From assembly GCA_049970595.1 (NCBI GenBank), contig JBMFMQ010000001.1, forward strand, positions 1 to 39,780: a stretch of 39,780 nucleotides of DNA, written 5' to 3'. Source of the stretch: Candidatus Ratteibacteria bacterium. GTDB taxonomy: Bacteria; Ratteibacteria; UBA8468; B48-G9; JAFGKM01. The notes beneath the pieces were generated by a model. It did not search any database. It saw only the letters and a list, made by a program, of their open reading frames with translations, and had not been told where the DNA came from. The position numbers and the translations under genes were made by a program. Below, in pieces: positions 7,590 to 30,212 of the stretch (position 1 is the stretch's first letter; the number at the start of each line of letters is the position of its first letter).

Positions 7590-7622
7590 TTTAATTTACC
7601 CCTAAATATTACTTCTATAATT

Positions 7623-7651
7623 ATTATAATTACATTAAAATAAAATGTCAA
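7623..7651 (-). promoter_or_regulatory. Consensus sigma70-type promoter for the Rrf2-led operon
   Basis: The minus strand reads TTGACA, a 17-nt spacer, then TATAAT (-35 at 7646-7651, -10 at 7623-7628). The -35 hexamer contains the TGA stop of the upstream PP-loop gene. An AGGGG RBS precedes the ATG at 7589. Confidence 0.55.
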
Positions 7652-9916: not shown

Positions 9917-9959
9917 TTATTACTAATTTAATCATATTTATAATATTACAGGTTAATTA

Positions 9960-10379
9960 TTAAATTGTCAAGATGGAAAATATATAACCAAAGGATACAC
10001 CTGAAAGGATTATAATAGGAAGATATATCAATAGGACCTTAATGCCAAATTCCTTTCTTAATAAAATTAAAGTGCCATAACTTGTTATTGGTCCAATCAT
10101 AAGAAAAGAAAAAGCAGGTACAATAGACATCCCATTTTTTATTAAAGAATGAACAATTGGAACGCTCATAGTTGTACACATATACATTAAAATTCCTACA
10201 AAGACAGCAAATATATATCCTTTATTACCTGAAAGATAGTTTTTTATAAAATATGAAATTGGGAAAAATGAATCAATAAAACTTGCAAGCAAAATACCAC
10301 TTAATAAAAAACCAACTATTAAAGCAGGAAAAACTTCTTTAACATAAAATAAAATTGAATTTATTAATTTTAAAAACAT
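9960..10379 (-). CDS. Half-size integral membrane permease (COG0701/DUF318-like)
   Basis: 139 aa with four hydrophobic segments, including ..YMCTTMSVPIVHSLIKNGM.. and FLMIGPITSYGTL, typical of one half of COG0701 permeases. The family call is from memory. Confidence 0.5.
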   Translation of the reverse strand: MFLKLINSILFYVKEVFPALIVGFLLSGILLASFIDSFFPISYFIKNYLSGNKGYIFAVFVGILMYMCTTMSVPIVHSLIKNGMSIVPAFSFLMIGPITSYGTLILLRKEFGIKVLLIYLPIIILSGVSFGYIFSILTI

Positions 10380-11170
10380 TTTTTAATTAAATTGAAATGT
10401 TTTTCACAAAAATCAGTTCCACTTTCTAAATGTGAAATTATTTCTTGTTGCCAGTGAAAGTTATATAATTTGCATTTTTTATCATCACAGAAAACTTCAC
10501 CAAAAATATTATAGAAAATTGCTTGAGAAAAGTAAACTTTTAAAATATCTGTTATTCTTCTATCTTCATAATCAATTATTTTATCACCAAATTCTTTTTT
10601 TAAATTAAATCTATCATATCCAAGTTGGAGTTTAAAATAATACTCCCTTGGTTTTGCAAGTGCTTCTATTATTCCTGTTGTTGATATAATATTTGGCTGC
10701 CCGAGAATTATAACTCTTAGATGATATGATTTATCATTTTCATCAAAAGTTGCAATAAGTTGATTTGTTAAAATAATATTTACAAAATTTATCTTCATTT
10801 CTTTCCTTTTAATCAATCCTTTACAAATATCTTGAAATTCAAACCCATCATATATTACTCCATGTTTTTTTATTTCCCCTTTTAACCTTTTCTCTTCATA
10901 TTCAATCTCAACTGGATAAATAACTTCATCCTCTTTAATTTTTCTTTTTCTGTCCTTTACCCTTATTTTTGAAAATCTTTCAGCAATATTTTTTATTTTT
11001 GATTGGTCAATTGAGGAAACAAAAAAATCTTCCCTTTTTAAAATTGTAAAAGATAAAAAATTTTTTTTAATAAAAGAGATAATCTTGTCTAAATCAAAAT
11101 CAGGATAGTGATATGTGTCATAGATTATTAGATAATATTCATTGAATTTAATCACTTCCTTACATTTCAA
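10370..11170 (-). CDS. Archaemetzincin-like (M54-like) protein lacking the HEXXH catalytic motif
   Basis: The C-terminal ..[22 protein letters not shown]..(19)..FCEKH follows the archaemetzincin GX3CX4CX(M/L)..CXX(C/H) pattern. HEXXH is replaced by AIFYN. The start was set to the TTG at 11170, which overlaps the thi4 stop (TTGA); the track N-terminal 36 aa lie inside thi4. Confidence 0.4.
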
Positions 11171-11946
11171 AATTTCCTTAATGCTATTTCTCCTGCCCTT
11201 TTTCCTGAAAGAAGCATTGCTCCAAAAGTAGGTCCCATCCTTGGAAGTCCATAAAGAGTTGAAACAGCCATACCACAAACAATTAATCCATCTATAACCT
11301 CACCTGTATGTTCAACAATCAAATCTTCAGAAAAATCAACCCACATTGCTCCATATCCTTTTGTCTTCAATATTCCCCTTTCTTCAAGTTTTTTACATAC
11401 AACTGCTTCATGTCCTGATGCATCTATCACAATTTTACTTTCAAGTGCAACAGGGTCAACACAGGTAATTTGTCTTGGTAAAGCACTAACAGGTGTCCAG
11501 TTTATAACAACTCCCCTTACTTTATTTTCCTCCCTTAAAACAATATCTTCAAAAATACTCATATTTGCAAATTTAACACCTGCCTCACATGCAGATGCAA
11601 TAAGTTTTGAACAGGCAAATGGACCATCAGCAACAAAAAGACCATCACTTGTTTCTTCAAATGGAACTTTAAGTTCTTTTAATATTTGCTCAGCAGGAGC
11701 TCTAACAGTTACTTTATTCATAAGATATCCACCTATCCAAAAACCTCCTCCAAGATAATTATTTCTTTCAACAATCAAAACTTTAAATCCATTCTTTGCT
11801 ATCTCTCTTCCAGCCATTAAACCACTTGGACCTGCACCAATAATAATTACATCACTTTCTGCATACTCATAAAATTCTTCATAAAATTTTTTAACAATTG
11901 CTCTTGTTACTTCTTTTTCACTTACATGTTTGAATATTTTTTCCAT
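11167..11946 (-). CDS. thi4: Thiazole synthase Thi4 (archaeal/eukaryotic type), probably the non-suicidal sulfide-dependent form
   Basis: Dinucleotide fold [36 protein letters not shown], with Thi4-like length and order. The conserved GH(D/E) motif reads DASGHEA, with Ser rather than Cys before the Gly. Confidence 0.85.
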
Positions 11947-11955
11947 TTTTAACCT

Positions 11956-12195
11956 CTATTCTATTAAATCACCAGGAACTTCTTCAACTTTAACACCTTT
12001 TCTTTCAAGATATTTTATTGCTTTTTCAAGATTTTCCTTTTTTCCTGAAAACTCAAGTGTAACCTCTCCAACTGTTTCAGTTACTCTCGCTCTTCTTATA
12101 TTTGGTATTATATCATATTTTTTTGAAACTGTAAATATAACTGGTTTTTTTATAAGATTTTGAGGAAATACAAGATTTAAAATTTTTTTAGCCAT
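11956..12195 (-). CDS. Stand-alone NIL domain protein
   Basis: About 79 aa: LVFPQNLIKKPVIFTVSKKYDIIPNIRRARVTETVGEVTLEFSG..ENLEKAIKYLERKGVKVE. This parallels the NIL half of the 5525-5929 protein. The start was trimmed to the ATG at 12195, 2 nt after the E1 stop. Confidence 0.7.
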   Translation of the reverse strand: MAKKILNLVFPQNLIKKPVIFTVSKKYDIIPNIRRARVTETVGEVTLEFSGKKENLEKAIKYLERKGVKVEEVPGDLIE

Positions 12196-12197
12196 TT

Positions 12198-13007
12198 TCA
12201 CTCCTTTCTTCTTAAACCACAAAATTCTTCATAATCTATTAATTCTTTTAAAGATGGATTTTCACCACATACTATACAATCTGGGTCCTTTCTTACTTTT
12301 ACCTTTCTGAACGATGAATCAATAGCATTAAAAACAAGAAGTTGATTTTTAAGAAGTTGACCAATACCAAGAATATATTTTATTACTTCATTTGCTTGAA
12401 TTAAACCAAGTATTCCTGCAACAACTCCAATTATACCTGCTTCCTGACAACTTGGAACAAAACCAGGAGGTGGTGGTTCTGGAAATAAACATCTATAACA
12501 AGCACTCTCTCCAGGTATAATTGTTATTGCCTGTCCTTCAAATCTCAATATCCCTGCATGAAAAAGGACTTTTTTCCTTAAAACACAGGCATCATTAACA
12601 AGATATCTTGTTGGAAAATTATCTGAACCGTCAATAATTAAATCATATTTATCAATTATTTCCATTATATTTTTTGAATTCAATCTTACCTTATACTTCT
12701 TTATTTTTACATCTGGGTTTAATCTTTTTAATTTTTCCTCTGCAGAATCTACTTTTGATTTTCCGATATCTTCTGTAAAATGTAATATCTGTCTCTGCAA
12801 ATTATTCAATTCAACATTATCTGAATCAACTATTCCTATTTCACCAATACCTGCTGCACAAAGATAATACGCACATGGAGAACCAAGTCCACCTGCACCA
12901 ATTATTAAAACCTTTGAATTCAAAAGTTTCTCCTGTCCTTTCCCTCCAATTTCTTTAAGTATAATCTGTCTTGAATATCTCTCAATTTGATTGTCATTTA
13001 AAGCCAT
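12198..13007 (-). CDS. ThiF/MoeB/HesA-family E1-like adenylyltransferase (no rhodanese domain)
   Basis: RYSRQIIL..IG..GQ..L, the VLIIGAGGLGSP nucleotide loop, zinc CxxC pairs (ACYRC and DCIVCG), and a crossover-loop Cys in PSCQEAGIIG. Confidence 0.85.
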   Translation of the reverse strand: MALNDNQIERYSRQIILKEIGGKGQEKLLNSKVLIIGAGGLGSPCAYYLCAAGIGEIGIVDSDNVELNNLQRQILHFTEDIGKSKVDSAEEKLKRLNPDVKIKKYKVRLNSKNIMEIIDKYDLIIDGSDNFPTRYLVNDACVLRKKVLFHAGILRFEGQAITIIPGESACYRCLFPEPPPPGFVPSCQEAGIIGVVAGILGLIQANEVIKYILGIGQLLKNQLLVFNAIDSSFRKVKVRKDPDCIVCGENPSLKELIDYEEFCGLRRKE

Positions 13008-13282
13008 TTTTCTCCTCCTGCTATTGCAGGTATAATTGAAATAATATCTCCATCTTTTAGTTTTGTCTTTTCTCCTTCAAGAAATCTTATATCCTCATCA
13101 TTTACATAAATATTTATAAATCTTCTTAAATTCCCATTTTCATCATAAATCCTCTCTTTCACCTGTGGATATTTTTTTATTATATTTTTAAGTAATTCTT
13201 CAATATTATCACCATCAACTAAAATCTCTTTTTGATTATCAACAAATTTTTGTAATGGTTCTGGTATTCTTACTTTTACCAT
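12998..13282 (-). CDS. MoaD/ThiS-family beta-grasp sulfur-carrier protein with a four-residue extension after the di-glycine
   Basis: 94 aa ending ..DGDIISIIPAIAGG-EKWL. The GGAGGA Gly codons double as the RBS for the overlapping E1 gene, whose ATG is at 13007. Confidence 0.8.
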   Translation of the reverse strand: MVKVRIPEPLQKFVDNQKEILVDGDNIEELLKNIIKKYPQVKERIYDENGNLRRFINIYVNDEDIRFLEGEKTKLKDGDIISIIPAIAGGEKWL

Positions 13283-13284
13283 AT

Positions 13285-14526
13285 TTAACCTCCCAATTTT
13301 TTCAGTTTTTCTTCAAATGCTTCTAAATTTGGTTTGATTTTTATTACTTGAGATATTTTATCATATAATGGTTCAGTTGTCTTTAACCCATTTCCTGTTA
13401 TAGAAATAACTATTGATTCATCAGGAGGAATTATACCTTTTTCTAATAATTTTTTAGTTACTGCAACTGTTACTCCTCCTGCTGTTTCTGTAAATATTCC
13501 TTCAGTTTCAGCAAGTATTCTTATCCCCTCTATAACCTCTTCATCGCTTACTTCCTCTCCATATCCACCTGATTCTTTTACACTTCTTACAGCATAAACT
13601 CCATCAGCGGGATTACCAATTGCAAGTGATTTTACAATTGTATTTGGTTTAACTGGCTTAATTATTTCTGTATTTTCTTTTATTGCTTTAACTATCGGAG
13701 AACATCCTTCTGGTTGTGCTGCATATAATTTTGTATCTATATTTTCAATAAACCCAATTTTATAAAATTCTTTAATTCCCTTCCATATTTTTGTTATCAA
13801 TGAACCACCAGCACATGGAACAACAATATGTTTTGGGGTCTTCCATCCAAATTGTTCTATTATTTCAAATCCATATGTTTTTGAACCTTCTGAATAATAA
13901 GGTCTTATATTTATATTTACAAATGCCCATTTATATTTTGAAGCAATCTCTGTACATAATCTATTTACCTGGTCATAATTTCCTTCAACGCCAATAACAA
14001 TAGGGTTATAAACTGAACTTCCAATAATTTTACCTTTTTCAAGGTCTGCTGGTATAAAAATAAATCTTTTTAAATTACATAATGCACCAATTGATGCAAC
14101 AGAATTAGCGAGATTTCCAGTTGATGCACATGCAACTGTATCAAAACCAAATTCAATTGCCTTTGAAACTGCAACAGAAACAACTCTGTCCTTAAAGGAA
14201 AGAGTAGGATGATTTACAGAATCATCTTTAATATATATTTCCTTTGCTTTTAACTTTTTCTCAAGATTTCTTGCTCTGAAAAATGGAGTAAAACCTGTAT
14301 TAAGCCCTGCTTTTGGATTTTCTCTTAAAGGTAATAGTTCAATATATCTCCATAAATTTTTGTTTCTTTTCTCAATTATTTCTCTTTTAATGGTTTTCTT
14401 AATTTCTTCATAATCATATATAACTTCAAGAGAACCAAAACACCATTCACACACATATATTGGTTCTTCAGGATATTCCCTTCCACATTCCCTACATTTA
14501 AGACCTCTTATAAAATCCATCTTCAT
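13285..14526 (-). CDS. thrC: Threonine synthase family PLP enzyme (ThrC-like; candidate MetM-type homocysteine synthase)
   Basis: N-terminal zinc ribbon (CRECGREY..VCEWC), PLP lysine motif TLSFKDRV, and a tryptophan-synthase-beta fold length. It lies directly upstream of the MoaD-like carrier (2-nt gap). Confidence 0.8.
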   Translation of the reverse strand: MKMDFIRGLKCRECGREYPEEPIYVCEWCFGSLEVIYDYEEIKKTIKREIIEKRNKNLWRYIELLPLRENPKAGLNTGFTPFFRARNLEKKLKAKEIYIKDDSVNHPTLSFKDRVVSVAVSKAIEFGFDTVACASTGNLANSVASIGALCNLKRFIFIPADLEKGKIIGSSVYNPIVIGVEGNYDQVNRLCTEIASKYKWAFVNINIRPYYSEGSKTYGFEIIEQFGWKTPKHIVVPCAGGSLITKIWKGIKEFYKIGFIENIDTKLYAAQPEGCSPIVKAIKENTEIIKPVKPNTIVKSLAIGNPADGVYAVRSVKESGGYGEEVSDEEVIEGIRILAETEGIFTETAGGVTVAVTKKLLEKGIIPPDESIVISITGNGLKTTEPLYDKISQVIKIKPNLEAFEEKLKKLGG

Positions 14527-16808
14527 CCTCCCTTTTCAACTTTTAACTTATAATAATTTTCAATCTTTTCAATATTTACAATCTTATGCCCATCATTTTC
14601 TAAACTTTTTGGAACATTTTCAATGGGAGGCCCTTCATCAAGAAATATTTCTATTATATCCCCTTTATTAAAATTTTCAATAAAAATTTTTGCTTTTACA
14701 TAATTTATCGGACATGGAGTTCCTCTTAAATCAATTAAATTTGTTTTCTCAATTTTTTTCTTAAATTTCTTAGGAAAATTAAATGTTGGGTCCATACTTT
14801 TATAAAGTGATAAAACATGATTATAAAAACTTTTTGCATATTCAAATTTTCCTTTCAATTCATTAATATCAATATTTTCGTCTATTGAATTATATATTTC
14901 TAAAAGGTTTAAATATTCTTCTGAACTTATTCCCTCATTTATAAAATTTTCAACAAATCCTTTTATTGCTTCATAAGGTGTTTTTGGGTCAATTCCTCTA
15001 ACAATAAGTAATGCTCTTGAAGAAATATATATAATATTTTTAACATTTTTGTAATCAAGTTCCTTTTCACATTTTTCTAAATATATCTTTGCCTCATCAA
15101 GGTCTGATTCTATCATATCTATAACACCTGCTCCACATTCACCTTGAGATAGTCCTGATAGAGAAAAATCTTCTTCTTTTCCCCAGTCCTTATAGAATTC
15201 AGAATTTTCACTATATGGTGGAACATATAAATAATTTTTTATCAAATCTTTACCTAAATCTTTAATTTTTTCCAATCCATTTTCTTCAAGTTTACTCAAG
15301 AATTCCTCAATAAATGATGGGATATTTTTTGCTGGAATAATTCCTATTTCATCTGCAAGTTTAGTATTTTCACCTTCAGATTTTCCTCCTATTAAAAATT
15401 TATAAAATGGGACACTTCTTCCATATACTTTCCTTATAATCCCATGAAAAGAAATATCTCCAATAGGATGCTGACCGCAAGCATTTGGACATCCATTTAT
15501 CTTTATTTTCAATTTATCAAAATATTTACTTTTTAAAAATTTATTCTTTATAACATCTTCTATTTCCTTTGAAAGTCCAACACTATTGCAAAGTCCAAGA
15601 TTACAGGTTAAAGCCCCTTTACAGCAACTTACATCAAGAATTGTCTCTGGATAAAGGAATTCATATCCAAAAATCTCCAGAAATTTCTTATAAATTTTAT
15701 ATAAATCCTTTTTTTTAATCCATGTAATTCCTATATTTTGACTCTGAGTTGTTCTGAATTCAATGTTTTCAAATTCATTCTTAAGTTCTGAAAGTTTAAT
15801 TGCATTTTCAAAAAATAAATCTCCTCTTGGTATCCTTAATATAATATAAACAAATCCATCCTGTTTTTGCTCAAATATATTATATTTCAAAAAATCATTG
15901 TAATAAGGGTCACCATTTTCTGGTATTTTCCCTCCATTTGCCTTATATTCATTAAAACTGATATTCCTCAAATATATGTATTCATTTTCTTTAATTTTAT
16001 TCAATTCTTTTTCAAAAATTTCTTTAAAATTTTCAAACCCAATTTTTTCAATAAAAAACCTCAATCTATTATGATGTCTATCCTTTCTATCACCATTAAA
16101 ATAATATATATTTTTTATTGCCTCAACAAGATATCCAACATCCTCTACTTTAATAAAATCACATAATAACTTTCCTTTCATTGAAATTGCACCCATTCCT
16201 CCGCCAGCATAGACAGAAAAACCAATTTCTCCATCTTTTCTTTTTGCTATAAAACCAACATCATTAACAAGAGCCTTTGCACAATCATAAGAACAACCTG
16301 AAAAAGCAATTTTAAATTTTCTTGGTAGATTATAAGATTCATCTTTTCTTAAAAGGTATTCACTCAAAGATATTGCAATGCCTTTAACATCAAAAATCTC
16401 TTTCTTACATACACCTGAAAATGGACATGCAGTTATATTTCTTATAGTATTTCCACCTCCTCCTCTTGGTGACAAATCAAATTCCTTAAGATAATCCATA
16501 ATTTTATATGTATCCTCAATTTTAACTTCATGTAATTGTATATCCTGCCTTGTTGTTATATGTAAAATTTTATTCCCATATTTTTCAGCCATAATTGAAA
16601 TTGCTTTAAGTTGTTCTGATGTTAAAAACCCACCAGGAATTCTTATCCTCATCATAAATACTTTCCCACCTCTATGAGAATAAATACCCCATGGAACTCT
16701 AATCCCTCTAAATCTTTCTTTTGGTATATTTCCTTTTAAAAATTCTTCAAGAGAGTTTTTATAATTCTCTTTTAATTGAATTTTTATTTCTTCAGGTAAT
16801 TTAAACAT
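14523..16808 (-). CDS. sir: Assimilatory sulfite reductase hemoprotein (NirA/Sir type) fused to a helical linker and a C-terminal TusA-like domain
   Basis: Siroheme/[4Fe-4S] ligand pattern SCCKGALTCNLGLC...NGCPNACGQH and duplicated NIR_SIR repeats. The last ~75 aa read DLRGTPCPINYVKAK...GDIIEIFLDEG.., which is TusA/SirA-like with CPxN instead of CPxP. Confidence 0.8.
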   Translation of the reverse strand: MFKLPEEIKIQLKENYKNSLEEFLKGNIPKERFRGIRVPWGIYSHRGGKVFMMRIRIPGGFLTSEQLKAISIMAEKYGNKILHITTRQDIQLHEVKIEDTYKIMDYLKEFDLSPRGGGGNTIRNITACPFSGVCKKEIFDVKGIAISLSEYLLRKDESYNLPRKFKIAFSGCSYDCAKALVNDVGFIAKRKDGEIGFSVYAGGGMGAISMKGKLLCDFIKVEDVGYLVEAIKNIYYFNGDRKDRHHNRLRFFIEKIGFENFKEIFEKELNKIKENEYIYLRNISFNEYKANGGKIPENGDPYYNDFLKYNIFEQKQDGFVYIILRIPRGDLFFENAIKLSELKNEFENIEFRTTQSQNIGITWIKKKDLYKIYKKFLEIFGYEFLYPETILDVSCCKGALTCNLGLCNSVGLSKEIEDVIKNKFLKSKYFDKLKIKINGCPNACGQHPIGDISFHGIIRKVYGRSVPFYKFLIGGKSEGENTKLADEIGIIPAKNIPSFIEEFLSKLEENGLEKIKDLGKDLIKNYLYVPPYSENSEFYKDWGKEEDFSLSGLSQGECGAGVIDMIESDLDEAKIYLEKCEKELDYKNVKNIIYISSRALLIVRGIDPKTPYEAIKGFVENFINEGISSEEYLNLLEIYNSIDENIDINELKGKFEYAKSFYNHVLSLYKSMDPTFNFPKKFKKKIEKTNLIDLRGTPCPINYVKAKIFIENFNKGDIIEIFLDEGPPIENVPKSLENDGHKIVNIEKIENYYKLKVEKGG

Positions 16809-16816
16809 AGTATCTC

Positions 16817-17932
16817 CTATATTTGAAAATACTGCTCAATTGAAAAATATCTTTCACCTGTATCAGGGAAAACAGTAACAACCTTTTTACCTTTACCAAG
16901 TTTTTTTGCTACTTTTAAGGCACCATATAATGCAGCACCTGATGAAATTCCACAAAATATCCCTTCTTTTTTTGCAAGTTCTTTTGCAAGTTTAAATGCA
17001 TCTTCATCACTACATGTTATCACTTCATCTATAATCTTTAAGTTTAAAACTTCAGGAATAAAACCAGCACCTATTCCTTGAATTTTATGTGGTCCAGGTG
17101 TTTTTCCTGATAACACAGCACTTGTTTCTGGTTCAACTGCAAAAATTTTTATATCCTTATTATATTCTTTTAAAACCTCTCCAACACCAGTTATTGTCCC
17201 TCCTGTTCCAACTCCAGCAACAAAAGCATCTATCTGGCCATTTGTTTGTTCTAAAATCTCTTTTGCTGTTGTTTTCCTATGTATTTCTGGATTTGCAGGA
17301 TTTTTAAACTGCTGTGGCATAAATGAATTTGGGATTTTTAAGAGTAATTCTTCTGCTTTTCTAATTGCTCCGTTCATTCCTTCAATTCCTGGGGTTAAAA
17401 TTACCTCTGCACCAAATGATTTAAGTATATAAATTCTTTCCAAACTCATTGTTTCAGGCATTGTAAGTATACATTTATAACCCTTTACAGCACATACCAT
17501 TGCAAGACCAATTCCTGTATTTCCACTTGTTGGTTCAATAATAGTTGCACCTTGTTTTATAATTCCTTTTCTTTCAGCATCCTCAATCATACTCAAAGCA
17601 ATTCTATCTTTTACACTTCCACCTGGATTGAAAAATTCAAGTTTTGCATAAATATCAGACATATCAGGTTCAGGAATTTTATTTAATTTCACCATAGGAG
17701 TATTACCAATAAGTTTAAGAATATCATCAAAAATCCCTCCTCCCATAAAAAATACAAATTCAACAACATCATTTTCTTTCAATTTAAAACTTTCAAATTC
17801 TTCTCTTTTTATTATTTTCTCATTCACCTCCACAGTTACAACTTCAGGTCTTATATTTTTCTCTTTCAGAAGTTCAAGCACAGTTATATTATCCCTTATT
17901 TCTGTCTCCTTCCCATTTAAAATTATTTTCAT
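16817..17932 (-). CDS. cysK: ThiS-like beta-grasp domain fused in frame to cysteine synthase (CysK/CysM family)
   Basis: Residues 1-66 ([11 protein letters not shown]...[13 protein letters not shown]) form a complete ThiS-type domain ending in GG(G). Residue 67 onward ([19 protein letters not shown].., SVKDR PLP lysine, GTGGT loop) is a full O-acetylserine/O-phosphoserine sulfhydrylase. Confidence 0.85.
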
Positions 17933-19187: not shown

Positions 19188-20161
19188 TTTAAAATTTCCT
19201 TTGCATGATAACTTATTATAAAATCTGCTCCTGCTCTCTTTATTGAAGTTAAAATCTCAAAAATTATATCTTTTTCAATTTCTTCTCCAAATCTTTTTAC
19301 ATAATCTTTAACCATCACATATTCACCACTTACATTATAGGCACATAAAGGATAATGAAGTTCCTTTTTCATTCTGTAAATTATATCAAGATATGGGATT
19401 GCTGGTTTAACCATTAAAATATCTGCTCCCTCTTGGATATCCTGTTTTGCTTTTATTATAAATTCATCGGAGTTTCTGAAATCCATCTGATATGTCTTTC
19501 TATCTCCAAATTTTAAATTTGATGAAACACTTTCTCTGAAAGGGAAATATAAATTTGAAGCATATTTACAAGTATAAGAAATTATACCAACATCAATAAA
19601 ATTATTTTTGTCAAGGACTTCCCTTATCGCCTTTGTCTGAAAATCCATCATTGAAGATGGGGCAACAAAATCAACTCCACAAAAGGCATGTGAAAGAGCA
19701 ATTTTCTCAAGAATTTCAAGTGTTTTATCATTATCAATATAATAATTATTCCCTTTATTTTTAACTATTCCACAGTGCCCTGTTTCTGTATAATTACATA
19801 GACATACATCTGATATTACAATAAGGTCAGGGAAGTTTTCCTTAATCTTTCTTATTGCTTTCTGAACTATCCCATCTTCTGAAAATGCCTTCTCACAAAC
19901 TCCTTCATTATTAAATTTTTCATTATTTTTATCAATAACTCCAAAAAGAATTATGCTTTTTAAACCTTTTTTGTAAATTTCTTCAATTTCTTTTAAAAGG
20001 TCATCAATAGAATATCTAAAAATTTTTGGCATATTTTTTATCTCTTCTGTTTTTCCATATTTAACGAAGAAAGGCAAAACAAAATCATTTTTACTGATAT
20101 TTATATTTGAAACAAGGTCCCTAATTGCTTCATTCTTTCTCAATCTTCTAAATCTTTTCAT
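19178..20161 (-). CDS. hemB: Porphobilinogen synthase HemB
   Basis: 327 aa with RRLR near the N-terminus, the Cys-rich zinc site DVCLCNYTETGHCG, and Schiff-base lysine context ILMVKPA. Confidence 0.9.
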   Translation of the reverse strand: MKRFRRLRKNEAIRDLVSNINISKNDFVLPFFVKYGKTEEIKNMPKIFRYSIDDLLKEIEEIYKKGLKSIILFGVIDKNNEKFNNEGVCEKAFSEDGIVQKAIRKIKENFPDLIVISDVCLCNYTETGHCGIVKNKGNNYYIDNDKTLEILEKIALSHAFCGVDFVAPSSMMDFQTKAIREVLDKNNFIDVGIISYTCKYASNLYFPFRESVSSNLKFGDRKTYQMDFRNSDEFIIKAKQDIQEGADILMVKPAIPYLDIIYRMKKELHYPLCAYNVSGEYVMVKDYVKRFGEEIEKDIIFEILTSIKRAGADFIISYHAKEILKWI

Positions 20162-21539
20162 AAAAAAACTCCTCTTTTAATGCTTTTTCAGTTACCTCTC
20201 CTATACATTTTATATTTATTTCAGGCAATCTTTTAAACCTTTTTTTAAAATTTCTAACAGTTGAAGGACTTGTAAATATTATCTCATCAAAAAGGGAAAA
20301 ATCAATATCTGGTATATTTTCAGGCATAACATTTTTATAACATATACTACTTGTAACAAAACAACCCATTTTTTCAAGTTCAATTTTAAGTCCTTTATCA
20401 GAAAGGTCACTCCTTGGAAGAAAAATTTTCTTATTTTTCATATCAATTTTCTTAAATTCTTCAATCAATCCAAGTGATGATTCTTTTATAGGTATAATAT
20501 CTGGTATAATCCCATATTTTTTTAATTTATTCCCTGTTGAATTTCCAATAGCAGCAATTTTTATATTTGAAAGCGCCCTTGAATCAAGTCCAATTGAAAA
20601 AAATCTTTTGAAAAAATATATAACACCAAATCTACTTGTAAAAATAATCCAATCATATTCTCTAATATTCCTTAATTTTTCATCAAATTCTGAATAATCA
20701 TCAAGTTCTTTTATTTCAATTAACGGGATATGAAAGATTATGCCATCTTCAAAATATCTTTTTGGTGAAATTCCAAAAAATAGAACCTTCTTTTTCTTTT
20801 CAAACCATTTAAATCTATTTTTAATGACTTTTCCTATTATAATTATTGCTGGTGGTTTTACTTTATCATAAACATCTTCTGCATTACATATTTCACCTTC
20901 AAAAATTCTCTGTTGAACCTTACTGACATTTGATATTACAATAAATGGAGTTTTCTTATCCATACCATTTTCAATAAGTTTATCAAATATTTTCTTCATA
21001 TTTTCTACACCCATATAAAATACAATTGTTTCAAGTTTTGAGATTATATCCCATCTTAATTGATTTTCTGGATTTTCAACCTGATGACCTGTTAAAAAAA
21101 TAACACTTGATGAAACATTTCTTATTGTTAAAGGAACTCCTGAATAACAACTTGCACAATTTGCAGATGTTATTCCAGGAACAATATAATATTCAATATT
21201 ATTTTCTTCAAGAAATTCAAGTTCCTCTTTTGCTCTCCCAAATATAAATGGGTCTCCATTTTTAAGCCGGACAACATTTTTCCCATCATTTACTTTTTTT
21301 AAAATCAGTTCATTAATAAGTTTTTGTTTTCTTAAAAATCCATCAGAATATCTATTACCATTTAATTCATCTGCACATATAAATTCACAATTTTTATTTG
21401 AGTATCTTAAAATATTTCTATCAACAAGATAATCATAAATAACAACATCACACTGATAAAGGATTTTCTTCCCTTTTAGTGTAATCAATTCAGGGTCTCC
21501 TGGTCCTGCTCCAACAATATAAACTTTCCCTTTTTTCAT
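20148..21539 (-). CDS. cobA/hemD: Bifunctional uroporphyrinogen-III C-methyltransferase / uroporphyrinogen-III synthase (CobA-HemD fusion)
   Basis: N-terminal SUMT signature VYIVGAGPGDPELITLKG and ..RLKNGDPFIFGR... The C-terminal ~220 aa is HemD-like (..IIFTSRFGV.., ..IIFTSPSTV.. duplicated lobes). Confidence 0.85.
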   Translation of the reverse strand: MKKGKVYIVGAGPGDPELITLKGKKILYQCDVVIYDYLVDRNILRYSNKNCEFICADELNGNRYSDGFLRKQKLINELILKKVNDGKNVVRLKNGDPFIFGRAKEELEFLEENNIEYYIVPGITSANCASCYSGVPLTIRNVSSSVIFLTGHQVENPENQLRWDIISKLETIVFYMGVENMKKIFDKLIENGMDKKTPFIVISNVSKVQQRIFEGEICNAEDVYDKVKPPAIIIIGKVIKNRFKWFEKKKKVLFFGISPKRYFEDGIIFHIPLIEIKELDDYSEFDEKLRNIREYDWIIFTSRFGVIYFFKRFFSIGLDSRALSNIKIAAIGNSTGNKLKKYGIIPDIIPIKESSLGLIEEFKKIDMKNKKIFLPRSDLSDKGLKIELEKMGCFVTSSICYKNVMPENIPDIDFSLFDEIIFTSPSTVRNFKKRFKRLPEINIKCIGEVTEKALKEEFFYEKI

Positions 21540-22204
21540 TTTCCGTCTATTAGTTTAAAAATTTTTTTTAATTCATAATCATCTTTTCTTATTTCAACTG
21601 CAAGGCATCCCTGAAGCGGATGAGGTTTTATGATTTCAAAAGGAATTGTCTGACTTATCAAATCTTCAAGTCCAAGCCGTATCAATGCACATTTTGCAAC
21701 AACTATTCCATCAAGTTTTAATTTTTCAATAAGTTTAATCCTTTCTTCAATATTCCCTCTTATATCTACAATTTCAAAATCAGGTCTAAAATTTTTCAGT
21801 TGTCTTTTCCTATTTTCACTACTTGTTCCTATCCTTGCTCCATATTCTAAATCGTGAAGTTTTTTACTTTCTTTTGAAACAAATGCATCATAAGGGTCAA
21901 GTGGCTTTGTTATAGCAGCAATAAATAGCCCTTCTCTTATCTTATCAGGGAGGTCCTTAGCAGAGTGGACTGCAAAATCAATCTCCCCTTCTAATAATTT
22001 TTCTTCAATTTTATCAGTAAAAAAATCTGTTCCTTCAACAAAAGAAAGAGAAGTTTTTTTATCAATATCTCCAGTAGTTTCAATTTTTATAATTTCGTAT
22101 TCCATTTTAATATTTATTTTTTCAAGTTTTTTTATTATTTCTTCAACCTGTTTTAAAGCAAGATTACTTGGTCTTGTTCCAATTCTATAAATTTTTTTCC
22201 CCAT
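21536..22204 (-). CDS. hemC: Hydroxymethylbilane synthase HemC, domains 1-2 only (C-terminal cofactor-binding domain absent)
   Basis: Conserved IGTRPSNLALKQ, AVHSAKDLP, IGTSSENRKRQL and DIRGNIEER motifs. The ORF ends at 222 aa, straight after the region equivalent to E. coli ~218. It then overlaps the cobA start by ATGA. Confidence 0.8.
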   Translation of the reverse strand: MGKKIYRIGTRPSNLALKQVEEIIKKLEKINIKMEYEIIKIETTGDIDKKTSLSFVEGTDFFTDKIEEKLLEGEIDFAVHSAKDLPDKIREGLFIAAITKPLDPYDAFVSKESKKLHDLEYGARIGTSSENRKRQLKNFRPDFEIVDIRGNIEERIKLIEKLKLDGIVVAKCALIRLGLEDLISQTIPFEIIKPHPLQGCLAVEIRKDDYELKKIFKLIDGK

Positions 22205-23178
22205 ATTTTCTCCACATAAAAATCTATTATTTTTTTTGCCTTTTCTGCTTCTTTTTTTCTATTTTCAATATTTCTTTCTATAATGACATTTAAATCTTCA
22301 AGTTGATAAAGTTCAACATTTTTAAACATCTTTATTTCAGGGTCTATATCTCTTGGAACTGCAAGGTCAACAATAATTATTTTCTTATCCATTATAGGAA
22401 ATTTCTCTTTTTTAATTATAAAATGTGGACTTGAAGTTGATGAAATACAGATATCGCAATCTCTTAAAATTTCATATAATCTATCAAATTTAAATGCAAA
22501 TCCTCCAAACTTTTCTGATAAATATTTTGCTCTTTCATAAGTTCTGTTTCCAATAAAAATTAATGAACAATTTTCCTTTTTTAAATAACTTAAAACAAGT
22601 TCACTCACCTTTCCTGCACCAATAATCAAAATTTTTTTATCATTTAATTTTCCGACTTTTTCCTTTATAAAATCAATAACTACACTTCCTACAGAAATCT
22701 TACCTTCATTTATTTTTGTCTCATTCCTAACAATTTTTGAAATTTTAAATGCACATTCAAATACCTTCCTTGTAATTCTATCAGTCATACCAATTGATAG
22801 AGAAATAAAATAAGAGTTCTCAACTTGCTTTTTAATCTGTGTCTCACCAATAATCAATGAATCAATACCTGAACATACATAAGATAGATGCCTTAAAACA
22901 TCTTCATTTTCAAAAAAATAGAAATAATCAGGTATTTTATTAAATTTTAAATTTTTTATCCTTTCAATCATTTCAAAAACTTTTTTAATACCTTCCTCTT
23001 TAAAATTTGTTGAAAAATATATTTCAAATCTATTACAAGTAGAAATTATTACACATCCAGAAATACCTTTCCCTTTAAGAAATTCAAGTCCATTTATAAT
23101 CATATCCCTTGTGAAACTTAACCTTTCCCTTAAACTTTTGTCTGAAAATTTATGATTTGTTCCAATTAAATAAACCAT
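22153..23178 (-). CDS. hemA: Glutamyl-tRNA reductase HemA (short form, C-terminal dimerisation domain largely missing)
   Basis: Catalytic Cys context IISTCNRFEIYF and NADPH loop ILIIGAGKVSE. At 341 aa it is shorter than the roughly 400-420 aa typical. The last 52 nt overlap hemC. Confidence 0.85.
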   Translation of the reverse strand: MVYLIGTNHKFSDKSLRERLSFTRDMIINGLEFLKGKGISGCVIISTCNRFEIYFSTNFKEEGIKKVFEMIERIKNLKFNKIPDYFYFFENEDVLRHLSYVCSGIDSLIIGETQIKKQVENSYFISLSIGMTDRITRKVFECAFKISKIVRNETKINEGKISVGSVVIDFIKEKVGKLNDKKILIIGAGKVSELVLSYLKKENCSLIFIGNRTYERAKYLSEKFGGFAFKFDRLYEILRDCDICISSTSSPHFIIKKEKFPIMDKKIIIVDLAVPRDIDPEIKMFKNVELYQLEDLNVIIERNIENRKKEAEKAKKIIDFYVEKIWGKKFIELEQDQVILL

Positions 23179-23580
23179 TCAATCCTCCAATAAAATTTCT
23201 TCTTCAAAAATTTCTCCTTCTTTTATTTTATATGATTTTGCAACAGGTCTATCAAATTCTAAAAGTGAAACAATTATATATGATGCATCAGGATAAAATG
23301 CAAGTTCAACATCTTTACCTGATGGATATGGATATGAAAATGGGTGAGAGTGATAAATAGCAAGCATCTGATAATTATTCTTTCTTATATCCTTCATAAC
23401 CGAAATCTGTTCTTTTGGGTCCATAAAAAATGATACAGAACTATTATCTATATTTTTCATTTTATATACTTTTTTCACTTCAAAATTTTCACCAGCAAGA
23501 ATTCCACATGCTTCCTTTGGATACTCTTCCTTACAATGTTTTATAATTTCTTCAAAAATTTCCTTTCTTATCTTAATCAT
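23179..23580 (-). CDS. JAMM/MPN+ (Mov34) metalloprotease
   Basis: Catalytic Glu in PKEACGIL and a complete JAMM motif HSHPFSYPYPSGKD (HxHx7Sx2D). The start was trimmed to the ATG at 23580, which overlaps the permease stop (ATGA). Confidence 0.8.
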   Translation of the reverse strand: MIKIRKEIFEEIIKHCKEEYPKEACGILAGENFEVKKVYKMKNIDNSSVSFFMDPKEQISVMKDIRKNNYQMLAIYHSHPFSYPYPSGKDVELAFYPDASYIIVSLLEFDRPVAKSYKIKEGEIFEEEILLED

Positions 23581-24545
23581 TTTTTTAAAAGAGAAAGTAA
23601 AATATATGTCAAAAATCCACTTAAAAATGGTGTAATTATCCAAACTTTTATAATTTTTCTTGTTATAGAATGATTTAATGAATCAATGTGTTTTTTCCCC
23701 TCTTTTAATGTATGTATTGCAAGAATTGAAAATGTTGAGAATTGAACATATGGAGCAGGAATTCCAAAAACAGAACATAATATAATCAATGATGAAACAA
23801 CAAGAGAAATAATAGAGGATGATGCAATTCCAAGAGGAATAATTTCATTACTTACTGTGCCTATAATCTTTCTTCCAAAAATATATCCACCAATTCCAAA
23901 AATTAATGAAAAAGTCAAAAATCCCTCATAAGGTAAAATAATTTTTGCTGCAAAAAGTGGTCCAACAACATTTGCAACATTATTTGTTCCAATTCCAAAT
24001 GCTCTGTAATAGTCACTTAAAAGAACCCATTTTTCAAGTTTATTTTTATTTAAGAATATTTTTTCATAAATTTTTAAATTTTCAAAACTTGGTGGATAAA
24101 TCTTTTTCCATAAAAGATATGTAAAATAATATGAAATAAATGAGACAAAAATCCATGTTAAAAAAATTTTTGGAAGAAATCTTAAATTTAAGGCATTAAA
24201 ATATATACCTGCTCCTATAAAAGAACCGATAGTTACCATACTTGTTGATTGTGGAATTTTTAAAATATTTGCAATAAACAAAGAAATTGAAGATGAAAAA
24301 AGAACAATTAAAACAACCTCTTCTTTTAAAAATTCAGAAGGAACAATTTTACTGCTTAATGTTTTAACAACATTTATACCAGCAAATAAAGAACCAAGTA
24401 AAACAAATAATGTGAATAAAAAAACTGCTTTTTCTTTCTTAATTATTCCTGCACCAACAGATGGAGCAAAAGAAACACTATATCCTGAACCACCCATATT
24501 CATTGCCCAGAAAATAGAAATTAATATTAAAAGTATGCTAACCAT
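23577..24545 (-). CDS. PiT (PHO4) family anion permease, candidate CysP-like sulfate transporter
   Basis: 322 aa polytopic membrane protein. The second-half PiT signature is present (GIGTNNVANVVGP). The first-half signature is degenerate (GGSGYSVSFAP instead of GANDVAN). It sits between sat and the JAMM gene. Confidence 0.65.
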   Translation of the reverse strand: MVSILLILISIFWAMNMGGSGYSVSFAPSVGAGIIKKEKAVFLFTLFVLLGSLFAGINVVKTLSSKIVPSEFLKEEVVLIVLFSSSISLFIANILKIPQSTSMVTIGSFIGAGIYFNALNLRFLPKIFLTWIFVSFISYYFTYLLWKKIYPPSFENLKIYEKIFLNKNKLEKWVLLSDYYRAFGIGTNNVANVVGPLFAAKIILPYEGFLTFSLIFGIGGYIFGRKIIGTVSNEIIPLGIASSSIISLVVSSLIILCSVFGIPAPYVQFSTFSILAIHTLKEGKKHIDSLNHSITRKIIKVWIITPFLSGFLTYILLSLLKK

Positions 24546-25707
24546 TTTTGCTCCTTAAATACCATTCCATTAAAATATTTGCAATCTCTGGCCTTGTAAA
24601 TTCTGAAGGTGGTATTTCTCCTGCAGCAAACAATTCCCTTATTTTTGAACCACTGAAAGAAAGCCAGTCCTCTTTATTATGAGGACATGTCTTTACTGTT
24701 CTCATTTCTCCACATTTCTTGCAATAAAAAGCATTTTCAAAAAAAAGTATCTCTATCTCAATATCTTCTTTTTTAAATTCATAAAATATTTTCTGTGCAT
24801 CAAATGGACCATAATAATTTCCAACTCCTGCATGGTCTCTACCTACTATAAAATGTGTGCAACCAAAATTTTTCCTCACAATTGCATGCAATACTGCCTC
24901 CCTTGGTCCTGCATATCTCATATATCCACCATAAACACCTATAAATACCCTTTCTTTTGGAAAATACTTATCTATTAAAACTTTATAACATTTCATCCTT
25001 ATATCTGCTGGAACATCATCTTTTTTTGTTTGACCAACAAGTGGATTTATAAAGACACCATCAACAATTTCAAGTGCTGTCTTTATTATAAATTCATGTG
25101 CTCTATGTATAGGATTTCTTGTTTGAAAACCAACTATCTTTTTCCATCCTTTATTTTTAAATATTTCTCTTGTTTCAACAGGTTTAAACCAGTAATCTTT
25201 AAATTCTTCATGAAATGGTTCATTCAACATATATACCTTACCCCCAATAAGATAATCACCATTTGAATAAACATAACTTACCCCAGGATGATTTTCATCT
25301 TCTGTCTTATAAACATATCTTGCCTCCTTCTTCTTATCATAAGAATAAACTTCATCAATCTTCATTATACCGAGATGAATATTTTCTGGACTTGATAAAA
25401 CAATTTCTTCTCCTTCTTTTAAAATTTTTCTCTCCTCATCATCAATTGAAAGAGTTATTGGTATTGGCCAGACAATTCCATTTTTCAATCTCATATTTTC
25501 AACAACATTTATATAATCATCCTTATTTAAAAAACCATCAAGAGGAGAAAAAGCACCTATGGAAATCATATAAAGGTCAGATACTTCTCTTTCATTTAAA
25601 TAAATCTTTTTTAAATAACTTACCTTTTCTATAAACTCTTTTTTTTCATCATCATTTAAGACACAATTGATAAGTTTTCCTCCATGTGGTTTTATTATCT
25701 CTTCCAT
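24538..25707 (-). CDS. sat: Sulfate adenylyltransferase (homo-oligomeric ATP sulfurylase, Sat)
   Basis: QTRNPIHRAHE and VGRDHAGVG motifs, with the KPHGGKLIN opening. The start was trimmed to the ATG at 25707, which overlaps the cysH stop (TAATG). Confidence 0.9.
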   Translation of the reverse strand: MEEIIKPHGGKLINCVLNDDEKKEFIEKVSYLKKIYLNEREVSDLYMISIGAFSPLDGFLNKDDYINVVENMRLKNGIVWPIPITLSIDDEERKILKEGEEIVLSSPENIHLGIMKIDEVYSYDKKKEARYVYKTEDENHPGVSYVYSNGDYLIGGKVYMLNEPFHEEFKDYWFKPVETREIFKNKGWKKIVGFQTRNPIHRAHEFIIKTALEIVDGVFINPLVGQTKKDDVPADIRMKCYKVLIDKYFPKERVFIGVYGGYMRYAGPREAVLHAIVRKNFGCTHFIVGRDHAGVGNYYGPFDAQKIFYEFKKEDIEIEILFFENAFYCKKCGEMRTVKTCPHNKEDWLSFSGSKIRELFAAGEIPPSEFTRPEIANILMEWYLRSKNG

Positions 25708-26414
25708 TATTCCCTCCTTGAAGGATGTAAACCACATTCTTTATGTTCAGGCGCTTCCCACCACCATCTTCCAGCCCTTATATCCTCTCCTTCTTTTATT
25801 GCTCTTGTGCATGGAGAACATCCAATACTTGGATAATTTTTGTCATGCAATTTATTATATGGAACATTATTTTCTCTTATATAGTTCCATACATCTTCAT
25901 TTTTCCAGTCAACTATTGGATTTATTTTAATTATTCCATTATGCGTCTCATCTATTTCAACCTTTTTTACATCCACTCTTGTTATTGATTGTTCTCTCCT
26001 TAAACCTGTTATCCATGCTTTATAATTTTTTAAAGCCCTTTCAAGAACCTTAACCTTCCTTATATTGCAGCATAATTTTCTCAATTCTATTGATTTATAA
26101 AATAAATTTGGACCATATTTTCTTTCCATTTCTTCTACCTCTCTAAAATCTGGGAAGTAAAAATCAATATCAATTTTATATTTATCCATAATTTCTTCAA
26201 TTACTTCATATGTTTCATTTGATAATCTTCCAGTATCAAGAGTAAAAATTTTCGGTTTTAAATTTTTTTCAGAATAAACCTTATATAAAATATCTATTAA
26301 AACAACATCTTCAGCACCAAAACTTGAAGAAAGAGCAACTTTATCTCCAAATTCATCCCTTGCCCATCTTAAAATCTCCCATACATTCAAACTTTCAAAT
26401 CTTTCAAATTCCAT
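25707..26414 (-). CDS. cysH: Assimilatory APS (adenylylsulfate) reductase, Fe-S containing CysH
   Basis: C-terminal KECGLH redox motif plus the CC...CxxC cluster ligands (RKLCCNIRK and GCSPCTR) that distinguish APS reductases from PAPS reductases. The start is set to the second ATG (26414), behind AAGAAGG; the first ATG at 26435 is also possible. Confidence 0.85.
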   Translation of the reverse strand: MEFERFESLNVWEILRWARDEFGDKVALSSSFGAEDVVLIDILYKVYSEKNLKPKIFTLDTGRLSNETYEVIEEIMDKYKIDIDFYFPDFREVEEMERKYGPNLFYKSIELRKLCCNIRKVKVLERALKNYKAWITGLRREQSITRVDVKKVEIDETHNGIIKINPIVDWKNEDVWNYIRENNVPYNKLHDKNYPSIGCSPCTRAIKEGEDIRAGRWWWEAPEHKECGLHPSRRE

Positions 26415-26461
26415 ATTTACCTTCTTTTTAATCATAATACTAATATTACTACTTTAATAAT

Positions 26462-26489
26462 ATTTTATCATTTTTAAAATTTTTGTCAA
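26462..26489 (-). promoter_or_regulatory. Sigma70-type promoter with extended -10 in front of cysH
   Basis: The minus strand reads TTGACA (26484-26489), a 16-nt spacer ending in TGA, then TAAAAT (26462-26467). This is the only non-coding gap (60 nt) between cusA and cysH. Confidence 0.5.
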
Positions 26490-26496
26490 TAGATTT

Positions 26497-30201: not shown

Positions 30202-30212
30202 TTTTTTCCCCT

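Follow-up and report, generated by a model that had tools for sequence, protein, structure and literature searches.

A conserved Omnitrophota gene block that probably links sulfate assimilation to ubiquitin-like sulfur carriers

Do 18 consecutive minus-strand genes that join sulfate reduction, tetrapyrrole synthesis and ubiquitin-like sulfur-carrier chemistry form one functional unit, and if so, what would that unit make? The question is raised by a stretch of 39,780 nucleotides from a Candidatus Ratteibacteria bacterium (GenBank assembly GCA_049970595.1, contig JBMFMQ010000001.1, positions 1 to 39,780), the whole of which was analysed and is called the window below. Judging from the sequence and its relatives, we consider it likely that the block is a single coupled unit which would carry sulfur from sulfate to cysteine, homocysteine and probably the thiazole of thiamin by way of ubiquitin-like carrier proteins.

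The block runs from 26435 down to 9960, as established from open reading frame calls and from inspection of start codons and ribosome-binding sites, a strong example of the latter, AAGGAGGG, standing ahead of the sat start. At the 17 junctions, taken with starts supported by ribosome-binding sites, neighbouring genes overlap by 1 to 52 nt or are separated by 0 to 9 nt, the sole exception being hemL/thiS-cysK (Table 1). A sequence-only reading had described the block as near-gapless, and 16 of its junctions were reproduced; the seventeenth agrees only if a frameshift at a run of seven A residues (A7) is repaired. Of the roughly 22 junctions outside the block, 8 are wider than 50 nt; such a run of tight junctions is therefore neither background nor mere compactness of the genome. 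The window has a G+C content of ~28% and all of its sizeable genes lie on the minus strand. The gene assignments read earlier from the letters were confirmed by Pfam and NCBIfam matches. The block is most likely one co-directional, translationally coupled unit, with a main transcript predicted to start from the promoter-like site at 26489-26462.

This site is the top match of the promoter scan (11 of 12 consensus positions plus the TG) and sits in the only gap upstream of cysH, of 61-82 nt, which follows cusA. The sequence ATCTATTGACA, followed by N16-17 and TAAAAT or TATAAT, is kept in the related loci L001 and L089, and the DNA upstream of the promoter differs. On the 5' side, homology between the window and its close relatives starts at ATCTATTGACA, the -35 region, which gives independent support for a unit beginning at this promoter. 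The promoter proposed earlier heads the block in three genomic contexts: after cusA on the same strand in the window; inverted in L001, between the orf200/SBP_bac_10 pair and cusA that also flank it in the window; and after a V-ATPase gene in L089. The terminator scan gave no convincing terminator at positions 1 to 27500, and the earlier claim that none lies inside the block holds, with one weak terminator-like hairpin on the operon strand (24686-24667, inside sat); terminator-like sites numbered 3, against 4.8 expected. As promoter and terminator counts were at or below the expectation from shuffling, only the position and conservation of individual sites were given weight. Each of the three gaps of at least 55 nt that flank or follow the block contains a strong sigma-70-like site (26489-26462, 9971-9943 and 7651-7623).

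The block boundaries were compared at 9900-9975 and 26410-26500 of the window, 1200-1520 and 16130-16230 of L001, and 1380-1520 of L089. Inverted repeats, sought at these boundaries to explain the inversion in L001, amounted to AT-rich noise only, and no mobility genes were found there. The motif AGTAATAWT occurs five times in the window, three copies (7605-7613, 9916-9924 and 26442-26450) lying 12-20 nt downstream of a -10 element in the three promoter gaps, where they precede Rrf2, orf200 and cysH, respectively; the leaders ahead of cysH in L001 and L089 contain related copies. The motif is a possible operator, conceivably for Rrf2, the regulator whose gene immediately precedes cysH in more distantly related loci. 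An Rrf2 operator common to the cysH and Rrf2 promoters was also considered for ATCTATTGACA and rejected, since that sequence looks like a general extended -35 element and is present before csoR too.

Gene neighbourhoods were taken for nine relatives of the ThiS-CysK fusion protein and from GTDB genomes. A contig scan with the fusion protein returned mostly ordinary CysK genes from many phyla, and about a dozen loci were informative. Conservation of gene order, a check set beforehand, was found in many Omnitrophota contigs. Six loci (L003, L005, L009, L086, L087 and L089) share the core order (Rrf2)-cysH-PiT-JAMM-hemA-hemC-cobA/hemD-hemB-hemL-thiScysK-sir-TusA-thrC-like-moaD-E1-NIL, with hem proteins that match those of the window at only 37-57% identity. 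Close variants of it are seen in L001 and L088, and the partial contigs L006, L007, L014 and L084 also fit it; the core order is found in at least eight independent Omnitrophota contigs, at protein identities down to ~40-55%. The closest case, L089 (fusion protein 91% identical), has all 18 genes in the same order and is collinear with the window at 79% nucleotide identity over 16.2 kb. The fusion itself is found in more than 120 clusters at 90% identity, 68-91% identical to the window protein and, where named, from Candidatus Omnitrophica/Omnitrophota. The composition varies around this core: sat is limited to the clade of the window, hem genes are absent from L011, L015 and L021, thi4 and DUF6775 lie downstream, upstream or are absent, and L010 and L012 retain cysH-PiT-cysK-hem-sir without ThiS, JAMM, E1 or the second carrier. 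In L005 two further genes separate hemB from hemL (7106-8703), one for an MtrA-like/pterin-binding (DUF4346) protein and one for a 153-aa protein of unknown family.

Table 1. Genes of the block in transcriptional order, with the promoter-like sites of the three gaps of at least 55 nt; APS, adenylylsulfate; PLP, pyridoxal phosphate; the last column gives the junction with the next gene
Feature	Position	Strand	Domains, models and remarks	Junction
Sigma-70-type promoter-like site	26462..26489	minus	TTGACA, 16 nt, extended -10 TG-n-TAAAAT	
cysH, APS-type (thioredoxin-dependent) adenylylsulfate reductase	25707..26435	minus	PF01507, TIGR02055; likely start ATG at 26414	1-nt overlap (TAATG)
sat, ATP sulfurylase	24538..25707	minus	PUA_2 + ATP-sulfurylase domains; NF003166 572.7 vs cut-off 387	8-nt overlap
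PiT-family, CysP-like sulfate permease	23577..24545	minus	PF01384	ATGA
JAMM/JAB metallopeptidase (Mec/HcyD/desampylase-like)	23179..23580	minus	Prok-JAB, 1.6e-22	0-nt gap
hemA, glutamyl-tRNA reductase, short form	22153..23178	minus	GlutR_N + Shikimate_DH; without C-terminal dimerisation domain	52-nt overlap
hemC, hydroxymethylbilane synthase, 222 aa, without domain 3	21536..22204	minus	PF01379	ATGA
cobA-hemD fusion, uroporphyrinogen-III C-methyltransferase + uroporphyrinogen-III synthase	20148..21539	minus	TP_methylase + HEM4; TIGR01469 254.9 vs 185	14-nt overlap
hemB, porphobilinogen synthase	19178..20161	minus	ALAD, 9e-125	10-nt overlap
hemL, glutamate-1-semialdehyde aminomutase, frameshifted	17929..19187	minus	Aminotran_3	46-nt gap as read; ATGA overlap after frame repair
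ThiS-CysK fusion	16817..17932	minus	ThiS + PALP; ThiS beta-grasp ending FFMGGG joined directly to CysK domain	8-nt gap
NirA/Sir-family ferredoxin-type sulfite reductase with C-terminal TusA	14523..16808	minus	NIR_SIR_ferr x2, NIR_SIR x2, TusA 692-759	ATGA
ThrC-like PLP enzyme, N-terminal Zn ribbon, candidate MetM-type homocysteine synthase	13285..14526	minus	PALP + CxxC...CxxC ribbon (NinF match)	2-nt gap
MoaD/SAMP-like sulfur carrier, end SIIPAIAGG + EKWL	12998..13282	minus	ThiS and Urm1 Pfam matches	10-nt overlap
E1-like adenylyltransferase (MoeB/ThiF/UbaA type), 269 aa	12198..13007	minus	ThiF 1.5e-85, sole domain; no rhodanese	2-nt gap, from ATG at 12195 with GGAG ribosome-binding site
Stand-alone NIL-domain protein, 79 aa	11956..12195	minus	PF09383, 3.4e-16	9-nt gap
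Thi4 thiazole synthase, Cys ("suicide") type	11167..11946	minus	Thi4, 2.3e-72	TTGA
DUF6775/DUF7001 protein, putative metal-binding, metzincin-like, Thi4 companion	10370..11170	minus	PF20565, 1.9e-71	10-nt overlap
ArsP_1-family permease, internally deleted, 139 aa	9960..10379	minus	PF03773 profile positions 175-293 only	
Promoter-like site	9971-9943	minus	10/12 match, before next gene downstream of block	
Promoter-like site	7651-7623	minus	12/12 match, before Rrf2 gene	

The first half of the proposed pathway follows the family assignments. Sulfate would be imported by the CysP-type permease, converted to APS by Sat and reduced to sulfite by the APS-type CysH with no APS kinase, and the ferredoxin-type sulfite reductase would reduce the sulfite further. 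CysH scores 269.3 with the APS_reductase model (cut-off 235.3) and its translation contains the CC...CxxC and ECGLH motifs. The permease has a single NCBIfam match, to the sulfate permease CysP (NF053884), end to end at 244 bits and below the cut-off of 400; its two GANDVANA motifs read NMGGSGYSVS (GGSG) at the N-terminal side and GIGTNNVANV (GTNN) at the C-terminal side. In Bacillus subtilis CysP the conserved Asp of both motifs is replaced, by Gly and Asn (PMC5840216), and the permease of the window has the same two changes. For the sulfite reductase, the nearest PDB relatives are ferredoxin-nitrite and sulfite reductases, with TM0983 for the TusA part, and related loci invariably have TusA either as a fusion with sir or as the very next gene. 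A 2026 report describes assimilatory sulfite reductases as releasing S0, not sulfide, which makes a persulfide hand-off to TusA chemically plausible; in this step the fused TusA would take the reduced sulfur as persulfide and substitute for the rhodanese that the E1 lacks.

Siroheme precursor, as far as precorrin-2, would be supplied by the products of hemA, hemL, hemB, hemC, hemD and cobA, again by family assignment. HemA scores 305 with TIGR01035 (cut-off 209.6), matching profile positions 2-327 of 416, and HemC 231.6 with TIGR00212 (cut-off 164), covering only positions 2-215 of 293. HemC is short in all relatives (198-236 aa). Domain 3 of Escherichia coli HemC bears the cysteine that holds the dipyrromethane cofactor. 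The short forms of both HemC and HemA are kept in all relatives, and the HemC of the window has a Cys in an LQGC motif near its end.

The second half of the pathway concerns the carriers. The MoaD-like carrier scores 56.6 with moaD_arch (cut-off 49.5) and the ThiS domain 69.7 with the thiS equivalog TIGR01683 (cut-off 37.45). Across 11 loci the end SIIPAIAGG of the MoaD-like protein is invariant and is followed by nothing, by 2-22 variable residues or, in the case of L015, by a complete NIL domain; ThiS in turn always finishes in (F/Y)(F/Y)MGGG, after which relatives have either 1-3 residues before the stop or a linker of at most ~15 residues leading into CysK. Every locus having these Gly-Gly-ended carriers with disposable tails also has the JAMM gene, whose product in the window retains an intact motif (HSHPFSYPYPSGKD, fitting HxHx7SxxD). 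By analogy, the conserved ends, the disposable tails and the JAMM fit the maturation role of HcyD and Mec in published systems. We propose that the JAMM separates ThiS from CysK by cleavage after GGG and removes the EKWL tail of the MoaD-like carrier, leaving Gly-Gly ends, and that the single E1 would then adenylate both carriers so that thiocarboxylates are formed; like Mec, the JAMM may also free the amino acid from carrier adducts. The E1 passes NF004281 (285.1, cut-off 266) and matches the MoeZ model NF005902 at positions 15-275 of 392 only; the rhodanese Pfam domain has no match in it, and the E1s of related loci never carry one. SirA/TusA was proposed as the rhodanese replacement in a class of sulfur-assimilation operons by Iyer, Burroughs and Aravind (PMC1779556).

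The same proteins could instead be mainly protein modifiers, with SAMP/Urm1-like conjugation by the E1, a JAMM acting as desampylase, and sulfur transfer secondary. Their best NCBIfam matches do point in that direction, SAMP1 at 59.0 (cut-off 60), UbaA at 334.7 (cut-off 450) and the desampylase NF041370 at 77.7 (cut-off 130), but all three scores are below the cut-offs. The genes also stand amid sulfate reduction and PLP consumers of the sulfhydrylase type, ThiS is fused to one of these consumers, and every published operon of such composition is tied to sulfur transfer (PMC1779556). We find conjugation as the main function very improbable, and prefer sulfur transfer.

As for the consumers, the MoaD-like thiocarboxylate would feed the ThrC-like enzyme, which would convert O-phosphohomoserine to homocysteine by the chemistry described for MetM/MetO. 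The enzyme scores 305.5 with TIGR00260, above cut-off, and in relatives with the carrier set the MoaD-like gene always lies directly after thrC-like. According to GapMind, MetM is commonly mis-annotated as threonine synthase (thrC). By analogy, the pair is a candidate for the route of MetM/MetO. The small NIL protein is encoded after the E1 in every relative with the carrier set, and is not a carrier itself because it has no Gly-Gly end. In L015 (14175-14717) a NIL domain is fused to the MoaD-like carrier through the Gly-Gly end of the latter, and in the Chloroflexi loci L059 (12246-13742) and L064 (15460-16982) NIL directly follows the ThrC-like gene, with no MoaD-like gene nearby; these arrangements link NIL to the ThrC-like enzyme. 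Our proposal is that NIL serves that enzyme as a partner or as a ligand sensor.

The third possible consumer is Thi4. Its Cys162 (ITCVDP) aligns with the His of the catalytic Methanocaldococcus jannaschii Thi4 (4y4m), and the same active-site Cys is found in the Thi4 of nine related loci. Relative to thi4, the E1 gene lies two genes upstream, the MoaD-like carrier three and ThiS-CysK six, and Pfam domain searches showed no ThiG in the 40-kb window. ThiS-thiocarboxylate would have one of two recipients: the CysK domain, in the manner of CysO and CysM, or the Cys-type Thi4, as in the hypothesis of Hanson. DUF6775, whose TTG start overlaps the thi4 stop, may be a Thi4 accessory protein.

Several observations count against a single, working, carrier-based unit and are weighed here, beginning with those on transcription. 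Promoter-like sites as a class are not enriched in the window (101 found, 114.6 expected from shuffling), and two sites matching at 11 of 12 positions lie inside coding sequence, at 14680-14653 before thrC-like and at 12135-12107 before thi4. Gaps of ~150 nt are found ahead of thiS-cysK in L087 and L088, and in L005 a TPP (thiamin pyrophosphate) riboswitch (15158-15265, 63.5 bits) stands before thi4-thiM-thiE, directly after NIL. The block could accordingly be read as several abutting transcription units, with internal promoters driving thrC-like to NIL and thi4 to the permease, and with a spacing that reflects a compact genome. Both internal sites are kept in L089 and L001, the three thiamin genes of L005 do form a unit under TPP-riboswitch control, and modules are separate elsewhere (no carriers in L010 and L012, no hem genes in L011, L015 and L021). 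However, the coding sequence surrounding the internal sites is kept as well, so that their conservation is uninformative; promoter-like sites occur at chance frequency, no terminators lie between the parts, most starts overlap the preceding stop, and internal promoters would supplement read-through rather than substitute for it. We consider a division into several units clearly less likely than one coupled unit.

An Rfam search of the window found no riboswitch or other RNA family, and S-adenosylmethionine (SAM), T-box or TPP control of the window copy was rejected for want of a match. Against the riboswitch of L005, the 9 nt ahead of thi4 and the empty Rfam result in the window indicate that in its clade thi4 was merged into the sulfur unit and TPP control was lost.

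A second group of objections asks whether the unit still works in this genome. The hemL reading frame breaks at ~18105-18112, in the A7 run, where comparison with the uninterrupted hemL genes of L089 (426 aa) and L001 (432 aa) also shows a 25-nt gap in the window. The terminal permease, named simply as a permease in the sequence-only reading, is a 139-aa internally deleted version of a 292-296-aa protein: compared with the 296-aa protein of L001, the first transmembrane segment (TM1) of repeat 1 is joined in frame to repeat 2, and L089 has the full 292 aa. Moreover, sir-TusA is cleanly absent from L001, a close relative, and from L002. With cusB upstream also split between two frames, these defects could mean that the unit is decaying and no longer works as described. 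On the other side, both frameshifts are at homopolymers of seven or eight A residues, typical of sequencing or assembly indels; past the hemL run, the conserved HemL C-terminus continues in the other frame as far as the expected ATGA over the thiS-cysK start, the arrangement also seen for the intact HemL gene of L089; and the 16 remaining genes, which share 63-91% identity with their counterparts in relatives, are all intact. Decay is in our view improbable. The likeliest cause of the hemL (A7, 17979-18120) and cusB (A8, 30860-30930) frameshifts is homopolymer indel error in the assembly, to which a natural 24-nt deletion may add at hemL.

The two loci without sir-TusA, L001 (11116-11132) and L002 (5378-5394), are independent assemblies of a close relative with a fusion protein 89% identical to that of the window. 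They lack sir-TusA between thiS-cysK and thrC-like, and retain cysH, sat and all hem genes.

A third objection concerns the cofactor. HemA, HemL, HemB, HemC, HemD and CobA (the uroporphyrinogen-III methyltransferase, SUMT) are present and the set ends at precorrin-2; domain searches of the window and of related operons found no precorrin-2 dehydrogenase or sirohydrochlorin ferrochelatase domain. Of the earlier statement that the block holds the tetrapyrrole steps needed for the sulfite reductase cofactor, the part from hemA to cobA/hemD stands, and the last two steps to siroheme must be encoded elsewhere.

The remaining objections bear on where the sulfur of ThiS goes. The CysK domain passes the cysK model TIGR01139 (473.9, cut-off 350.95) and stays below the cysM equivalog cut-off (324.2 vs 394.2), its nearest PDB structures are Geobacillus and Mycobacterium tuberculosis CysK1-type enzymes, and in a neighbour-joining tree the unfused CysKs of L010 and L012, which have no JAMM, E1 or carrier in their loci, nest inside the fused clade. 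By these comparisons of sequence and nearest structure the domain is a canonical CysK, not one of the M. tuberculosis CysM type, so the pairing of ThiS with CysK is not secure; of the earlier claim that cysK consumes a carrier, the fusion is there and the consumption is in doubt.

CysK may then use free sulfide (or S0), with ThiS merely co-translated and, after JAMM cleavage, serving Thi4 as donor or repair agent. Only the MoaD-like carrier would serve amino-acid synthesis, together with the ThrC-like enzyme, and the ThiS fusion would resemble the fusions of ubiquitin to ribosomal proteins. Besides the CysK evidence just given, the match of ThiS to the thiamin ThiS model speaks for this wiring, as does complementation of E. 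coli by an Omnitrophica Cys-Thi4, one of two test cases in a 2026 study, which was better with ThiF and ThiS (PMC13325395). Gene fusions, however, usually unite direct partners; the ThiS-CysK fusions of L003 and L087 have no thi4 within 10 kb, and L013 has ThiS, E1 and JAMM with the sulfite reductase and CysK and again no thi4. Co-occurrence does not help, since the Thi4s of the clade are Cys-type with or without ThiS nearby. We give the Thi4 wiring a little less than an even chance; when the two are set directly side by side, ThiS to CysK and ThiS to Thi4 with CysK on free sulfide, we rate them as roughly equal. Assigning the carrier from the Thi4 type (Cys or His) and the presence of ThiS was also tried and dropped as non-discriminating, all Thi4s of the clade being Cys-type.

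The most elaborate form of the carrier pathway would keep sulfur protein-bound all the way from sulfite to product, through the persulfide of the fused TusA, two carriers freed by the JAMM and activated by the E1, and three consumers (for cysteine, homocysteine and thiazole), with ThiS-thiocarboxylate making the Cys-type Thi4 catalytic and NIL acting as a new adaptor or sensor for the ThrC-like homocysteine synthase. As a whole we regard this as rather unlikely.

The neighbourhood of the block is also of interest. On the same strand, downstream at 2648-8628, lies a second sulfur block with a ThiI-like PP-loop protein, Rrf2, HcyBio (COG1900/DUF39), a NIL-ferredoxin, NifS, NadA, NifU and RseC, the DUF39/COG1900 route occupying 7124-5525. 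NIL-ferredoxin proteins are required for this unrelated homocysteine route, and the window would therefore encode two unrelated homocysteine routes. The earlier reading placed more than one NIL domain in the block; there is one inside, and the second, that of the NIL-ferredoxin, is at 5929-5525. Upstream (26497-33617) lies a copper-resistance set of OEP, CusB (split) and CusA, together with a YHS-domain protein and a CsoR-type repressor. Among NCBIfam models, the truncated permease at the end of the block comes closest to the SO_0444 Cu/Zn efflux transporter and to SaoE, without reaching either cut-off, and may thus belong with metal export rather than with sulfur. Its last codons overlap the -35 element of the next gene's promoter-like site (9971-9943).

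The locus is of value since it collects, in one conserved and compact unit, components that bear on several questions about sulfur carriers: whether ThiS can serve a Cys-type Thi4 and spare its suicide, whether a canonical CysK can take a protein thiocarboxylate, whether a TusA fused to sulfite reductase stands in for the rhodanese of MoeZ-type E1s, and what the NIL domain does in homocysteine synthesis. It could account for possible prototrophy of uncultured Omnitrophota for sulfur amino acids and thiamin. It also illustrates under-annotation, the fusion being labelled only as cysteine synthase A and the likely MetM being one that would score as threonine synthase.

How new is the arrangement? 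The statement that no such locus had been described proves too strong, its modules being found in three published sources (PMC1779556, the MetM/MetO work of 2024 and PMC13325395). In the literature searched we found no description of all modules combined in one translationally coupled unit, nor of its phylum-wide conservation, of a stand-alone NIL protein as constant partner, of ThiS-CysK as a precursor fusion, or of the whole glutamyl-tRNA-to-precorrin-2 trunk lying between JAMM and thiS-cysK.

The nearest counterpart is the "class 4e" of Iyer, Burroughs and Aravind (2006), which includes HcyS/HcyD/HcyF/MetY of Wolinella succinogenes. Their operons comprise a ThiS/MoaD carrier, JAB, a rhodanese-less E1 and SirA/TusA, with a sulfate transporter, PAPS (3'-phosphoadenylylsulfate) reductase, ATP sulfurylase and sulfite reductase (PMC1779556). 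Shared with the window are a Gly-Gly-ended ThiS/MoaD-like carrier with a tail that needs trimming, JAB/JAMM, the rhodanese-less E1 with SirA/TusA in the rhodanese's place, and ATP sulfurylase, (P)APS reductase and sulfite reductase in one neighbourhood. The consumer differs, O-acetylhomoserine sulfhydrylase (MetY) there and the ThrC-like enzyme and CysK here, and so does the transporter, an ABC sulfate transporter there and a CysP-type PiT permease here; Pfam found neither a Cys_Met_Meta_PP enzyme nor an ABC transporter in the stretch. The window further has two carriers, one of them fused to CysK, its TusA is fused to the sulfite reductase, and there is no APS kinase. Beyond "class 4e" it adds the five-gene tetrapyrrole block, Thi4, DUF6775 and the NIL protein.

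MetM/MetO of Streptomyces albulus provides the counterpart of the ThrC-like/MoaD-like pair. According to the summaries of that work (Hasebe et al. 2024) in 10.1101/2024.10.14.618325 and PMC12172450, a thiocarboxylate route leads from O-phosphohomoserine to homocysteine and needs Mec and MoeZ. Common to both are a threonine-synthase homologue beside a small sulfur carrier, a Mec-type JAMM and a MoeZ-type E1. In the window, unlike there, the four genes share one operon with sulfate reduction, the E1 lacks a rhodanese, there is no SAM riboswitch, and the NIL protein is a constant extra partner. The Cys-Thi4 clusters of Oliveira-Filho et al. (2026) cover ten genes around thi4 and contain DUF6775, ThiS, ThiF, CysK and CysI (PMC13325395). 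A Cys-type Thi4 followed by DUF6775, with ThiS, E1, CysK and sulfite reductase within ten genes, is common to both; the sulfate-activation and hem block, the ThiS-CysK fusion, JAMM and the ThrC-like/MoaD-like pair are not described as a unit in the accessible part of that paper.

With CysO/CysM/Mec/MoeZ of M. tuberculosis the window shares a ubiquitin-like carrier, a JAMM hydrolase, an E1 and a PLP beta-replacement enzyme encoded together, and it differs in having a canonical CysK, an E1 without rhodanese and a carrier that is fused to its enzyme and needs cleavage. The cysH operon of B. subtilis, cysH-cysP-sat-cysC-sumT-sirB-sirC, likewise unites cysH, a PiT-family CysP, sat and uroporphyrinogen methyltransferase, and is a precedent for siroheme genes travelling with sulfate assimilation. 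It holds only the siroheme-specific steps (SUMT, dehydrogenase and chelatase) and no carrier system, whereas the window has the whole glutamyl-tRNA-to-precorrin-2 trunk without dehydrogenase and chelatase; the CysP and sat of B. subtilis are covered in PMC5840216. Every module of the block has a published counterpart, and the block is the Omnitrophota version of a "sulfate assimilation plus ubiquitin-like sulfur carrier" operon rather than a new category.

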